IMG/VR virus record: IMGVR_UViG_2872698443_000004
Span: 1 to 51,075 of that record
Strand: one strand, 5' to 3'
Length of the DNA: 51,075 nt
Source: a virus
Lineage: Duplodnaviria; Heunggongvirae; Uroviricota; Caudoviricetes
Under the pieces are notes generated by a model. It did no database searches, was not told the origin of the DNA, and saw only the letters and a list, made by a program, of their open reading frames with translations. Every line of letters begins with the position of its first letter. Within the stretch, counting starts at the first letter, position 1. Below are positions 7,629-51,075 of this stretch, piece by piece. The translations under genes were made by a program, and so were the position numbers.

Positions 7629-7693
7629 ATTAATTCCTCTCAAATAAGTGCTTTGCTGCCAAAACAATGAACCATCCGGAAATTCCAGATAGT

Positions 7694-7921
7694 TCATAAT
7701 TCACTCTTCAATACTTCCAACTTACTAATCGCCGATAGATATCCGCGCTGATAGGGCATCATCATTCCTTCGAGCTTGCCACTTCTTAACTCCTCCCTGA
7801 GCAATTGTATTGCTTGATCAATAACCTCTGCCTTAGCGTCCTTTATGGCTTGCTTGCGGGGCTTTGCTTTCTGCTTTGGCAGATTTCTCAAGCATGATGG
7901 AATGTATGTCTGATTCATCAC
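7694..7921 (-). CDS. Hypothetical protein downstream of N
   Basis: 75-aa ORF, GTG immediately after N stop, ATG one codon later. Confidence 0.4.
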   Translation of the reverse strand: MMNQTYIPSCLRNLPKQKAKPRKQAIKDAKAEVIDQAIQLLREELRSGKLEGMMMPYQRGYLSAISKLEVLKSEL

Positions 7922-8194
7922 TTACCTCGCCGTCAGTTGTTTTGATTTCCGGTATCCTGCCGCGTAAATGGCTACGTTTGGCAGGCAAATACTTCCACTG
8001 CATTCTTCTGCCTTCTTGCAGCGAAGGCTTCCGAGCGATGCTGCTTTGTCTGCTCTGACGCAACCAGAGAGCTTTAGCGCAATTTTTCGCGCCAGTGCTT
8101 CATTACTGCGTCGCTCGGCAATAAGTTCTGCTCTGCGAGCTTTGTAGCGGCTTTTTGCCGTACCTTTGGATTCTTTCCAGACAATGGTTACCAT
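7922..8194 (-). CDS. N: N-like transcription antitermination protein
   Basis: Arginine-rich N-terminus (GTAKSRYKARRAELIAERR); first gene downstream of pL and nutL; AAGGAG SD. Confidence 0.7.
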   Translation of the reverse strand: MVTIVWKESKGTAKSRYKARRAELIAERRSNEALARKIALKLSGCVRADKAASLGSLRCKKAEECSGSICLPNVAIYAAGYRKSKQLTAR

Positions 8195-46118: not shown

Positions 46119-46488
46119 TTCGCCTCCGGATACTTACCCAGGGTAATGTTATTTACCGTTCTGTAATTGTCGCGGGTCATCAGGCCGGTCGCCCTGCGAG
46201 CCCGGAGGATATCGATGCTGTTTATTAACTGAGAGCGGGTACAGGCGCTGAATCCCGGCTGGTCGGTAGCACCAGCGCGTATTTTTCCACGAGAAAGTTC
46301 ACCGCATCACACAGTGAAATGCCTGCCTCAATATGCTGCTCAATCACACGTTCATCGGCAAAAGGTGTGTCATTCAGTGTGAGGCCATAGTGCTGGTCCA
46401 GCAGTCGGGACAGCAGTATCTGCCAGATTTCAACAGGAGACGGGCGAGAACTGGTCGCCTGCCCGGGTAATACAGGTAATGTTTTCAT
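46115..46488 (-). pseudogene. cbtA: CbtA (YeeV) toxin gene, frameshifted
   Basis: N-terminal 73 aa read normally then 14 out-of-frame codons to a stop at 46225; recognisable C-terminus continues in another frame down to 46115. Confidence 0.7.
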
Positions 46489-46576: not shown

Positions 46577-46945
46577 TTAATTTTTCATTTCGGGCGTCGG
46601 ATAAACAGCCAGATAAACGTAACCACAACTGCTGAGGGTATCGGCTTTGCAGGTCAGCCCTTTTGCATACAGCGTGACGGTATGCTGATGGCGGGGATTC
46701 AGTTCACCGCTGGTGAGCATGAGTTCCAGTTGTTTCATCAGCAGCGGAAAGGCCTGGTCCAGGTGGTACGCATCTGCATCGCTGAACAGGCCTCTGATAC
46801 CGGCGCGGTCGGCAAGGTAATGCAACCGGTTACCCTCCTGCACCAGACGTGCCCCGAAACAGGGCGTCACGGTGCAGGGCAGCCCCCACCAGGGGCGGTC
46901 GTGATTGTCGTCGGGAAGTGTTGTCCCGGGGAGTGTGTCTGACAC
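46577..46945 (-). CDS. cbeA: CbeA (YeeU) antitoxin
   Basis: 122 aa, intact. Confidence 0.85.
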   Translation of the reverse strand: MSDTLPGTTLPDDNHDRPWWGLPCTVTPCFGARLVQEGNRLHYLADRAGIRGLFSDADAYHLDQAFPLLMKQLELMLTSGELNPRHQHTVTLYAKGLTCKADTLSSCGYVYLAVYPTPEMKN

Positions 46946-48355: not shown

Positions 48356-49177
48356 TCAGCGCAGGCTCTCCAGCATCGTTTCTGCCATCACCCACAATGC
48401 GCGATTGAGCTTAATGTCGGTATCAATGCTGTGAATGGCCCGGGTATGGATACGTTTTCCTTTTGCACTGCGACCGGAAATCCCGCCTTTCAGCATATTC
48501 TCCTGGATGGTCTGATATGCGCTCCACAGGTCCTTACCGTAATCCTCCCGGCGTCGCGGCGTCAGAATGTCGGCGGTGGTGACGGGCTGATGTTCGTCAC
48601 CATAACGGTAAGTCAGTGCCGCCTGTGCCAGCGCCTGGCGTGCCGGTGGCGGCAGGACCAGCGACTGCATGGCATCACGCTTCTCCTCTATCCGGTCAAA
48701 CACGCCCACCACCTCGTAAGCCCCTTCGATAACTTTCTCCACTACATTTCCCCGGTGTGGAACACGCACTTCCCCCAGAGACTGGCCACAGACGCACCCG
48801 TTCTGGCAGACGAACCTGAAGTAACCCGGCAGCATCTGGTAGCTGGAGGTACCGTCATGAGAGTTGAGCAGAATAATTTCAGGGACATGTTCTCCGTTTA
48901 TCTCTCCGGCCCGCCGCAGACGCAGCATGTGTTTTGTGTATCCCCGGCGGCCCGGGTCGCGCACACGGGTCTGGCAGGCGAAGAACGGCTGAAAGCCTTC
49001 CCGCTGCAGATTTTCCAGGACGGTAATGGTGGGAATGTACGCATACCGTTCACTGCGGGAGGTGTGCCGGTCTTCCCCAAAAATACTGGGTACATGGCGT
49101 ATCAGTTCTTCATGTGTCAGCGGACGGTCACGGCGTATCTGGTTTGCAGCATAACCAAAACGACTTGCTAATCGCAT
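48356..49177 (-). CDS. DUF932-like protein
   Basis: 273 aa; synteny with antirestriction/radC cluster. Confidence 0.6.
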   Translation of the reverse strand: MRLASRFGYAANQIRRDRPLTHEELIRHVPSIFGEDRHTSRSERYAYIPTITVLENLQREGFQPFFACQTRVRDPGRRGYTKHMLRLRRAGEINGEHVPEIILLNSHDGTSSYQMLPGYFRFVCQNGCVCGQSLGEVRVPHRGNVVEKVIEGAYEVVGVFDRIEEKRDAMQSLVLPPPARQALAQAALTYRYGDEHQPVTTADILTPRRREDYGKDLWSAYQTIQENMLKGGISGRSAKGKRIHTRAIHSIDTDIKLNRALWVMAETMLESLR

Positions 49178-49221
49178 ACTTTGCTCCTTATCGGTGGTTA
49201 AGATTTACTGGTGCAATAAAT

Positions 49222-49254
49222 GAAAAAAGCCGCGTCTCCCGGAGAAGACGCGGC
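49222..49254 (-). terminator. Rho-independent terminator (minus strand)
   Basis: GCCGCGTCT-CCCGGAGA-AGACGCGGC hairpin with U-tract on minus strand; downstream of secreted-protein operon. Confidence 0.45.
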
Positions 49255-49397
49255 CTGACGGGTGAAATGAATAAGGTTTATTGTCTGAGAGGCCTTTCAC
49301 TGGCGAGCCACGCATTAAGCGGCTTTCCGGTAACAATGGCTGGGGCTGTATTTACCTTTGATATTAATAATGTGCAGAGAAACGCATGGTTTACTCC

Positions 49398-49808
49398 TTA
49401 GATTTTAAGTTTGTCCTGGGCTACAACGACAGGTTTTCCGGATGTGTCGATGACTCCTACCGTCGGTACGCCATTTTTGATTTCGAAGAACGGTTTGTTG
49501 CTACCTGAGCACAGTTGATTGTCCCCGTATTCAATCATTTGTGCTTTCCCGGTTTTCAGGTTAACTACCGAGACAGTGTAGTCGTAGCACCAGGCACCAC
49601 CACGTTCAAGCACGAAAACATAGCTGTTATCTTTATAGTTGAACTGATTCTTTGTCTGGCAATTCATACCGTCAATTTCGGTACAGGAAAACGCTTCTGT
49701 AGTATTAACGTATTTGATGTTATTTGGCAGTTTTACTTGTTTCGCAGTAGCGAAGACAGAGAACAGAATAGTTACAGCAACGAGTAAAGTTTTGATAAAA
49801 GTTTTCAT
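49398..49808 (-). CDS. Hypothetical secreted protein (136 aa)
   Basis: Signal peptide MKTFIKTLLVAVTILFSVFATA; four Cys; AT-rich. Confidence 0.55.
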   Translation of the reverse strand: MKTFIKTLLVAVTILFSVFATAKQVKLPNNIKYVNTTEAFSCTEIDGMNCQTKNQFNYKDNSYVFVLERGGAWCYDYTVSVVNLKTGKAQMIEYGDNQLCSGSNKPFFEIKNGVPTVGVIDTSGKPVVVAQDKLKI

Positions 49809-49823
49809 GATAGACTCCTTAAA

Positions 49824-50312
49824 TTAGTTAACCGCAGCTACGTAGTTTTTCACCAGATACGCGAATTCATGCACGCCAATTTCACCGAACCAAACCAGGT
49901 AGGCCGGGTCATCTAAACCAAAGTAACGGTAGCCAACAACTTCATGGGTTTTTGGGTTATAGAGTGTTACGATAAAGTCCCAGCCGCAGGTATTGGCTTT
50001 GCAACCGTCGCCCTGGAACCAGACTGTACCGTTAATGTTTACTGGCGTGATACCTCCACCAGGGCCATCCATATAGCCGCCTTTACCGAACATGCCGCTC
50101 AGTCCGACCGGTTTTAATGCTTTGTCGATAGCGGCTTTGTAGGTAGCGTCACCTTCGTACAACTCGTACGTTGATGGACACGCTCCAGGTTGTTCAGCCC
50201 AGGCTTCCGGGTTACAACTAAGAGCTTGTTTTACGGTAGCCGCTTCTGCGTTAAAGTTAAAGCCCGTGAACAGAACCGCCAGAAATAACATAAGGGTATG
50301 TAAACGTTTCAT
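49824..50312 (-). CDS. Hypothetical secreted protein (162 aa)
   Basis: Signal peptide MKRLHTLMLFLAVLFTGFNFNAEA; Gly-rich, several Cys; AT-rich. Confidence 0.55.
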   Translation of the reverse strand: MKRLHTLMLFLAVLFTGFNFNAEAATVKQALSCNPEAWAEQPGACPSTYELYEGDATYKAAIDKALKPVGLSGMFGKGGYMDGPGGGITPVNINGTVWFQGDGCKANTCGWDFIVTLYNPKTHEVVGYRYFGLDDPAYLVWFGEIGVHEFAYLVKNYVAAVN

Positions 50313-50614
50313 TGTAAATATTCTTCCGTTGTAAATGGCGCTGGAAAATTTCTCATCAGTGAAACCTTCCGGAAGTTTCCCCCCTTGTATGATGTATATC
50401 GCCAGTATTTTATTTCATCCCGGCTGTGATTTTTATATTCCCCGGCACGTGCAATAACGCTGACCAGAGATATAAGGCTCATTAATAACTTTACAGGTAA
50501 TTTCATAATTAAATTTCCAGTGAGTGAATTGACAGGTGAGGGGTAAAACTTTCTCTCAGGTAATATATATCTGAAAATATTTTCAATAACACCAGACAGG
50601 AAAAACACCACCAC
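50309..50614 (-). CDS. Hypothetical small protein
   Basis: 101-aa ORF overlapping start of downstream gene; internal Met MKLPVKLLMSLISLVSVIA may be true start; weak SD. Confidence 0.3.
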   Translation of the reverse strand: MVVFFLSGVIENIFRYILPERKFYPSPVNSLTGNLIMKLPVKLLMSLISLVSVIARAGEYKNHSRDEIKYWRYTSYKGGNFRKVSLMRNFPAPFTTEEYLQ

Positions 50615-50682
50615 AGGCGGTGGCGTTTCTTTGGGGCGTCTTTATTTAATCCGGGCCATCGCGTTTCTCAGTGCCAAATCTG

Positions 50683-51075
50683 GGTAATGACTCCAACTTA
50701 TTGATAGTGTTTTATGTTCAGATAATGCCCGATGACTTTGTCATGCAGCTCCACCGATTTTGAGAACGACAGCGACTTCCGTCCCAGCCGTGCCAGGTGC
50801 TGCCTCAGATTCAGGTTATGCCGCTCAATTCGCTGCGTATATCGCTTGCTGATTACGTGCAGCTTTCCCTTCAGGCGGGATTCATACAGCGGCCAGCCAT
50901 CCGTCATCCATATCACCACGTCAAAGGGTGACAGCAGGCTCATAAGACGCCCCAGCGTCGCCATAGTGCGTTCACCGAATACGTGCGCAACAACCGTCTT
51001 CCGGAGCCTGTCATACGCGTAAAACAGCCAGCGCTGGCGCGATTTAGCCCCGACATAGCCCCACTGTTCGTCCAT
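50683..51075 (-). mobile_element. IS1, second copy (partial, runs off window end)
   Basis: Same terminal repeat and sequence identical to first copy over 393 bp; same orientation. Confidence 0.9.
50698..51075 (-). CDS. insB: IS1 transposase InsB (truncated by window end)
   Basis: Identical to InsB C-terminal 125 aa of first copy. Confidence 0.85.

Follow-up and report, generated by a model that had tools for sequence, protein, structure and literature searches.

Ivy (YkfE in Escherichia coli, Ivyp1/2 in Pseudomonas aeruginosa; PF08816; structures 1gpq, 1xs0, 1uuz and 4ps6) is a core-genome inhibitor of vertebrate lysozyme, and in P. aeruginosa these proteins act on the lytic transglycosylase MltB in addition to c-type lysozyme (PMC10746161). 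T4 Spackle (gp61.3) inhibits the tail lysozyme gp5 in the periplasm and serves superinfection exclusion (PMC7677548). According to the PHAGEPACK preprint (bioRxiv 10.1101/2024.04.20.590424), E. coli O121 encodes an Ivy-like protein with a CKANTC loop, Hypo_04657, whose knockdown by CRISPR interference (CRISPRi) increases T7 fitness and plaquing, and for which T7 lysozyme is proposed as the target. Here, we analysed a stretch of DNA of 51,075 nucleotides (nt), hereafter the window (IMG/VR virus record IMGVR_UViG_2872698443_000004, positions 1 to 51,075), and focused on two adjacent genes, A and B; all features of this finding lie on the minus strand. Gene A very probably encodes an exported protein of the Ivy family. 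By analogy with the systems above, it may act as a periplasmic inhibitor of phage peptidoglycan-cleaving enzymes, a proposal that in our judgement is evenly balanced between true and false.

Gene A and the Ivy family

The original prediction, made from the sequence alone, had described two consecutive, co-oriented genes of 162 and 136 amino acids (aa), both with N-terminal signal peptides and several cysteines, followed by a terminator, and each of these features was borne out. The two genes are separated by 15 nt, with gene A first. Signal peptides were called from features of the translations (n-region, hydrophobicity and A-x-A site). That of gene A spans residues 1-24, with a basic n-region, a 12-residue hydrophobic core (Kyte-Doolittle 2.5) and predicted cleavage between AEA and A, and that of gene B spans residues 1-22, with a basic n-region, a 12-residue core (Kyte-Doolittle 2.9) and predicted cleavage between ATA and K. 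Inspection of the signal sequences revealed no lipobox in either product, and by the same features the gene A signal peptide is kept in every homologue aligned. Each protein contains four cysteines (33, 45, 104 and 109 in A; 42, 50, 74 and 100 in B), and all eight are invariant among the homologues examined. The terminator after gene B consists of a 13-bp (base pair) stem with 8 G-C pairs, a 4-nt loop and a T-run; the scan that located it returned 7 terminator-like sites against 1.7 expected. A promoter scan of the minus strand found no sigma-70-like site upstream of the unit. Taken together, we show from this layout that A and B form a two-gene transcription unit with its own terminator, predicted to encode two disulphide-containing, Sec-exported proteins.

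A family profile was built from gene A together with seven of its close relatives, and a search of 1.84 billion representatives with this profile recovered 57 proteins. All of the scanned homologues that aligned over most of gene A (16/16) passed the gathering score of Pfam Ivy (PF08816); two weaker profile matches with partial or multi-stretch alignments, P0136 and P0155, had no Ivy domain. At the level of sequence comparison, membership of gene A in the Ivy family holds transitively, via the homologues that pass the gathering score. Moreover, a 21-sequence profile spanning both the close and the distant group matched the Ivy structures in PDB (1gpq and 1xs0, E 3e-13; 4ps6 and 1uuz, E about 4e-10). 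The structure model of gene A is beta-rich and is predicted to adopt the three-dimensional fold of Ivy, a central antiparallel beta-sheet with flanking helices. Identity between gene A and core Ivy is about 20%.

In the profile alignment, the gene A segment C104-K-A-N-T-C109-G falls on C-K-P-H-D-C-G of Ivy, which contains the inhibitory loop. Both cysteines, the lysine and the following glycine are retained, and the two cysteines are invariant in the 21 sequences. All distant homologues have a histidine in the loop (CEAHNC, CEPHNC and similar), as does the island paralogue P0014 (CKAHAC). The window, the majority of island alleles and the phage copies have asparagine in its place. His60 of Ivy is reportedly central for lysozyme inhibition. 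The change of the loop histidine to asparagine suggests a target other than c-type lysozyme. Additionally, an extra N-terminal cysteine pair, C33-C45 (a 'C...CP' motif), marks the gene A clade.

These features bear on the classical role of Ivy, in which gene A, perhaps together with gene B, would shield the cell from host c-type lysozyme upon breach of the outer membrane and thus serve as an accessory of colonisation or virulence. The Ivy fold and homology of gene A fit this role, as does the observation that Ivy and other inhibitors raise the lysozyme tolerance of E. coli (PMC2267010), and the island that carries the genes is common in animal-associated E. coli, including Shiga toxin-producing (STEC), avian pathogenic (APEC) and enterotoxigenic (ETEC) strains. 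It seems unlikely, however, that this is what gene A does: the histidine of the CKPHDC loop is asparagine in gene A, core ivy and mliC are already present in E. coli (PMC2267010), and the jumbo phages that carry the same pair would gain nothing from resistance to animal lysozyme. Moreover, the sole phenotype on record concerns phage T7.

Among the distant members of this Ivy subfamily, P0150 has a fused C-terminal caspase-like peptidase C14 domain, and P0116 and P0118 carry a Cys-rich extension of ~170 residues. To judge from these domain arrangements, the Ivy-like module appears to be reused within larger exported proteins. Some gene A homologues bear the name 'DNA polymerase III subunit gamma/tau' in databases (a protein cluster and the RefSeq hit H120). 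This looks like a propagated annotation error, for which sequence and fold give no support. A literature search found no paper citing the RefSeq accessions of these proteins.

Gene B and the jumbo-phage counterparts

Direct sequence search with gene B found no relative in Pfam, NCBIfam or PDB, and matches to SH3b_T and JUQZ were dismissed because they lay far under the cut-offs. The family phrog_8968 matches gene B over residues 1-131 at E 2.6e-45, which places gene B in this family. By tblastn, gene B has homologues in 40 SPN3US-group jumbo-phage genomes at 34-37% identity, with SPN3US gp084 as its counterpart. Profile-profile comparison further revealed two paralogous families, that of the neighbouring gp083 (96%, E 4e-9) and that of gp085 (95%, E 4e-8), in both cases with the four cysteines aligned to those of gene B. 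The gene B family is one of small, predicted all-beta, four-cysteine proteins that have been tandemly multiplied in SPN3US-like jumbo phages. Kinship of gene B with the 180-aa island protein described below, or with the p130/gp086 family, was rejected because the hhalign alignment covers the signal peptides alone. The beta-rich lysozyme-inhibitor families MliC/PliC, PliG and PliI gave neither a sequence nor a fold match to gene B.

The A-B pair is also carried by a clade of ~220-kb (kilobase) SPN3US-like jumbo phages, where it lies in a run of five genes, all with signal peptides: 153 aa (YfjT family), 130 aa, a 160/161-aa Ivy-like protein, a 136-aa gene B homologue and 129 aa. The run was found in a 168-kb Logan contig (L011) and in five IMG/VR viral contigs (L022-L026; 107-225 kb), and was inspected in detail in L011, L023 and L024. 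The phage counterparts of A and B are 59-79% identical and keep the order of the genes, and the A-B spacing is 15 nt in L011 and L023, as in the window and in other island copies, and 11 nt in L024. The genes after the run are syntenic with SPN3US gp082-gp080 and 33-57% identical to them, the SMC-like gene being 57% identical to gp080. Since the same A-B pair lies within the five-gene run, E. coli CP4-type islands share this block with jumbo phages.

A further trace of the block was found in a related island, L004, in which a frameshifted pseudogene of the phage 130-aa gene (SPN3US gp086-like; 81% identity in the C-terminal half) occupies positions 7687-7979, between the 180-aa gene and the Ivy-like gene; islands of this type are without gene B. 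The pseudogene indicates that the gene order of the island block formerly matched that of the phages (130 aa, Ivy-like, B). The AT-richer composition and the phage-typical gene family suggest that the block may have passed from phage to island.

In Enterobacter ludwigii 51A:C, the circular, 222,441-bp 'plasmid unnamed1' (NZ_CP134650.1; L028) has the same arrangement of flanking genes. Its annotation includes gene B, and a DNA match at 78% nucleotide identity extends over both genes. The replicon is non-mobilizable, displays SPN3US-like gene order in the ~11 kb inspected and has an 834-aa gene where L011 has the SMC-like protein. Judged by its gene order, the replicon is most likely the genome of a jumbo phage that the isolate carries or that was co-assembled with it.

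The first gene of the phage run (4608-5069 in L011; 5106-5567 in L023 and L024) is assigned to the YfjT family (PF27224) in precomputed Pfam annotation alone, and hmmscan of the protein returned only a sub-threshold match to DUF5114. The family is named after a gene of the CP4-57 prophage of E. coli K-12. If the label holds, CP4-type islands and jumbo phages share more than one small exported protein.

Upstream reading frame, island setting and distribution

A small upstream open reading frame (ORF) had been considered possible in the original prediction, and a co-oriented ORF does exist (Table 1); it is not a leader gene but the 5' stump of a 180-aa signal-peptide gene. In the paralogous islands L003-L007, this gene is complete and lies upstream, and the remnant ORF is 49% identical over 63 residues to the N-terminus of its product in L004 (7098-7640). 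Relative to L004, the window-type locus has a deletion of ~710 bp, from codon ~63 of the 180-aa gene to just before the start of gene A. Extension of the upstream ORF to a GTG at 50614 is not credible because it would pass through the terminator hairpin. The stump is decaying: L008 has an in-frame stop, 12 residues differ between the translations of L001 and L010, one of them being an Arg in the old signal-peptide core, and the window has an additional frameshift.

Table 1. Features of the A-B locus and its surroundings in the window
Feature	Position	Strand	Remarks
Gene A, 162-aa precursor	49824..50312	-	Very probably a divergent Ivy-family protein; predicted periplasmic
CKANTC loop, gene A codons 104-109	49986..50003	-	Predicted counterpart of Ivy's disulphide-closed inhibitory loop CKPHDC
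Gene B, 136-aa precursor	49398..49808	-	All-beta (model), four-cysteine, predicted exported protein
Gene B Shine-Dalgarno AAGGAG	49815..49820	-	Direct reading; inside the 15-nt A-B spacer
Intrinsic terminator closing the A-B unit	stem and T-run 49256->49227, within 49217..49256	-	From scan; before the DUF932 gene
Remnant ORF, 65 codons	50309..50506	-	5' stump of the 180-aa signal-peptide gene; ATG at 50506, stop at 50309-50311, overlapping the gene A ATG (ends ATGA on the gene A start)
G6 homopolymer (C6 on the plus strand)	50379..50384	-	From alignment; G7 in the closest genomes
Terminator-like hairpin of the upstream patatin operon	50606..50622	-	7-bp stem, then TTTTT
Patatin-like phospholipase remnant, last 41 nt	50642..50682	-	12 complete codons, a partial 13th and the stop codon; collinear with the L001 patatin 3' end to the IS1 junction
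IS1 end	50683..51075, running off the window	-	IS1 terminal repeat GGTAATGACTCC starts at 50683

The reading of this stump depends on a homopolymer within it. In the G7 allele, the remnant ORF (MKLPVKLL...) is in frame with gene A, which gives rise to the 227-aa RefSeq annotation (made by the Prokaryotic Genome Annotation Pipeline, PGAP) in the closest genomes and in the majority of genomes overall; in the G6 allele of the window, it halts at a TGA overlapping the gene A ATG. Of 2286 matching E. coli records, 27 contain a 90-nt stretch exactly in the G6 form of the window and 1262 contain its exact G7 form. The G6 carriers include unrelated lineages (an O157:H7, APEC O1:K1:H7, duck isolates and NCTC11129) in addition to apparent clonal groups, and the presence of G6 in unrelated lineages indicates that slippage recurs. 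Divergent gene A homologues (58-81% identity), phage copies included, encode 160-161 aa and start with MKRL. Because the divergent and phage copies start at MKRL while the stump decays, the conserved product is the 160-162-aa precursor. On the alignment evidence, the 227-aa model is a by-product of the deletion, which fused the 5' stump of a neighbour onto gene A; the 227-aa ORF was accordingly rejected as a genuine two-domain membrane protein.

A length-variable tract at this position could also be a phase-variation switch, with one state yielding a membrane-anchored fusion of 227 aa and the other an exported protein of 162 aa that is translated separately. The tract does vary among genomes, with G6 in 27 of the 2286 records from both unrelated lineages and clonal groups, and the end of the G6 upstream ORF on the gene A ATG (ATGA) is a coupling arrangement. 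Nevertheless, such a switch is scarcely likely, given that the tract lies inside a decaying stump (the L008 stop codon and many non-synonymous changes), that it is interrupted in other alleles (GGGTGG in P0005), and that the phage and divergent island copies lack it, their product being simply 160 aa. Moreover, at 1.2% the G6 form is rare, which fits sporadic slippage or homopolymer sequencing error.

The hairpin read from 50622 to 50606 divides the A-B unit from the upstream patatin operon, and a search of the region 48900-51075 against Rfam (E<=0.1) returned zero matches. The block 49398-50614 has 43.1% GC, the 1st percentile among the 1217-nt windows of the whole stretch, compared with 54-57% for the neighbouring genes. 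The AT-richness stated in the original prediction is therefore true of the block overall, owing to gene B (41.1% GC) and the upstream remnant ORF (38.9%), but not of gene A, which at 48.7% is near the window mean of 49.7%.

On its downstream side, the A-B unit is followed on the minus strand by the DUF932 gene, an antirestriction gene and RadC/YeeS, and then by yeeT, cbeA, a truncated cbtA and yeeW. The module from DUF932 to yeeW is the conserved right-hand part of a CP4-44-type island beside tmaR-yeeA-sbmC-dacD-sbcB. In the window, cbeA (46577-46945) is intact, and the toxin gene cbtA (46225-46488, minus strand) is truncated to an 87-aa ORF and is annotated as frameshifted in the closest genomes.

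On the upstream side, the IS1 copy is annotated as IS1A transposase in the closest genome. At this position, most other genomes have a patatin-like gene preceded by RdcB/YjcZ-like and dynamin-like genes. The 41-nt patatin remnant at the junction therefore identifies IS1 as a later insertion with deletion and an incidental neighbour. IS1 does adjoin the block, at 50683, but the acquisition that its proximity had been taken to hint at does not follow from it, and IS1 was rejected as the vehicle because it arrived later and cut off the patatin gene. The trio of dynamin-like (794-798 aa), RdcB/YjcZ-like and patatin genes (13444-17809 in L001) lies upstream of A-B in several CP4-type islands. PADLOC gave marginal matches alone for the patatin and dynamin-like neighbours (LeoBC, phospholipase effector), and the trio looks like an uncharacterised module, possibly one of defence.

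Horizontal acquisition of exported cargo, as originally predicted, is itself upheld by the CP4-44-type island, by the occurrence of the pair in ~43% of genomes and by the jumbo-phage counterparts. Homology to a core periplasmic protein, which had been named as an argument against acquisition, is formally present through core Ivy; gene A, however, is an island- and phage-borne Ivy paralogue of ~20% identity, and horizontal acquisition therefore stands.

The distribution across E. coli, which had been suggested as a check, was surveyed in 5426 complete genomes, of which 2333 carry gene A and 2366 gene B (~43%). The pair is nearly always chromosomal and typically present in a single copy. This distribution is relevant to a housekeeping role, in which gene A would control the lytic transglycosylases of its own cell, as proposed for Pseudomonas Ivy, the island copy being a redundant paralogue. 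Inhibition of MltB by Ivy proteins (PMC10746161) agrees with such a role. We nevertheless consider it quite unlikely for a gene that is found in just ~43% of E. coli genomes, is located in a mobile island and in phages, and is ~20% identical to core Ivy.

When island and phage copies were compared in pairs, the ratio of non-synonymous to synonymous substitution rates (dN/dS) ranged over 0.13-0.22 in gene A and 0.11-0.26 in gene B, with dS reaching values above 1. This purifying selection indicates that A and B are real genes and not chance ORFs. It also bears on the possibility that both are passengers without function, remnants of phage DNA kept in the island through linkage only. Decay of the neighbours is in keeping with this possibility (the stump of the 180-aa gene, the p130 pseudogene, the frameshifted cbtA and the truncation by IS1). 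Against it stand the dN/dS of 0.11-0.26 at such dS, the intact A and B reading frames in >2,000 genomes, the conservation of all eight cysteines and the knockdown phenotype reported in bioRxiv 10.1101/2024.04.20.590424, and we regard passive persistence as very unlikely.

Proposed function and comparison with known systems

An anti-phage inhibitor role is proposed for gene A because phages carry the gene, knockdown helps T7, Ivy inhibits MltB and T4 Spackle provides a precedent. Mature gene A would reside in the periplasm, where its disulphide-closed CKANTC loop would plug the active-site cleft of the muramidase or lytic transglycosylase of an incoming virion; for T7, the target would be the transglycosylase domain of gp16. 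With this enzyme blocked, cell-wall penetration and genome entry would be hindered. In a phage, the result would be superinfection exclusion, and in an island, a constitutive anti-phage barrier. Gene B is co-inherited and predicted to be co-transcribed with gene A, adjoins it, and belongs to a family found in the phage slot of the Ivy-like gene. It probably acts in the same compartment and may be a second inhibitor or a partner.

Several observations weigh against this reading. Knockdown by CRISPRi/dCas9 is polar, and the T7 phenotype may therefore stem from gene B or from genes further downstream. The 'lysozyme' of T7, gp3.5, is an amidase and is therefore not the expected target of an Ivy-type glycosidase inhibitor, which is why we turn to gp16 instead. 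In addition, the validation of Hypo_04657 in the preprint (bioRxiv 10.1101/2024.04.20.590424) covers one phage and one strain. With regard to the Ivy assignment, direct sequence search of gene A gave no match in Pfam (E<=0.1), NCBIfam or PDB, the profile of its close relatives matched an E. coli Ivy fragment weakly (47% probability, E 2e-4), and gene A departs from the canonical C-K-P-H-D-C motif, with Pro, His and Asp all replaced. As for phages and defence, gene A had no tblastn match among 50,697 genomes of isolated phages, Foldseek against BFVD (E<=0.001) found no gene A homologue, and no model of PADLOC-DB 2.0 matches gene A, gene B or the 180-aa neighbour. Finally, the structure model of gene B is of low confidence, with a predicted local distance difference test (pLDDT) score of 66.

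A periplasmic inhibitor of peptidoglycan-cleaving enzymes need not be directed at phages. Gene A and gene B could be orphan immunity proteins that neutralise peptidoglycan-hydrolase toxins delivered to the periplasm by competitors through type VI secretion (T6SS), type IV secretion (T4SS) or bacteriocin-type systems, and that have been kept without the cognate toxin. This seems improbable to us, and the anti-phage inhibitor mechanism agrees better with the T7 phenotype and with the occurrence in phages than this or any other rival explanation. A wider and rather doubtful extension of that mechanism is that the cassette, an Ivy-fold protein together with the gp083/084/085 four-cysteine family, represents a new entry-blocking immunity class. 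Each protein would inhibit its own enzyme active in the periplasm, whether virion-borne or used for lysis, and gene B would be the founding member of an inhibitor family. If so, nearly half of E. coli strains would owe to their islands a constitutive 'periplasmic shield' of phage origin.

Both genes are labelled hypothetical in thousands of E. coli genomes. Through the Ivy assignment, the 162-aa gene model and the sharing with phages, the T7 CRISPRi observation becomes a concrete, testable mechanism. If this mechanism is true, gene A would be the first Ivy-fold counterpart of T4 Spackle, integrative islands would recruit phage superinfection-exclusion genes for host defence, and gene B with its phage paralogues would be candidates for a periplasmic inhibitor family of a new kind. 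Should the mechanism prove wrong, the locus is ordinary island cargo.

In comparison with Ivy of the core genome, gene A is borne by a mobile island and by jumbo phages, is paired with gene B, and has the CKANTC loop and the extra cysteine pair C33-C45. Hypo_04657 belongs to the same protein family as gene A and shares with it the CKANTC loop and the recognition as Ivy-like, so the Ivy likeness of gene A is already on record. In the preprint the long ORF is described as a two-domain protein with a helical transmembrane part, whereas in our analysis this 'transmembrane part' is the fused neighbour stump plus the signal peptide of gene A itself. The excerpts of bioRxiv 10.1101/2024.04.20.590424 do not mention the partner gene B, the jumbo-phage counterparts, the island setting or the origin of the N-terminal segment. 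To the account given there we add a corrected model of gene A, the history of the deletion, the finding that gp083 and gp085 are paralogues of gene B, and the block held in common with jumbo phages.

SPN3US gp083, gp084 and gp085 occupy, like gene B, the slot beside the SMC-like gene, and are annotated as hypothetical. In SPN3US, the gp085 paralogue fills the place that the Ivy-like gene has in the related phage clade and in the E. coli islands. No homology between gene A and T4 Spackle was found, and their resemblance would be functional alone. Spackle resembles gene A in its small size, its occurrence in a phage, its signal peptide and its disulphide, and the proposed logic, inhibition in the periplasm of the enzyme with which an incoming virion cuts the cell wall, is shared. 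Spackle, however, is an allosteric alpha-helical bundle that is evolutionarily independent of Ivy (PMC7677548), whereas gene A is modelled as a beta-rich protein that would act, as Ivy does, by inserting a loop.

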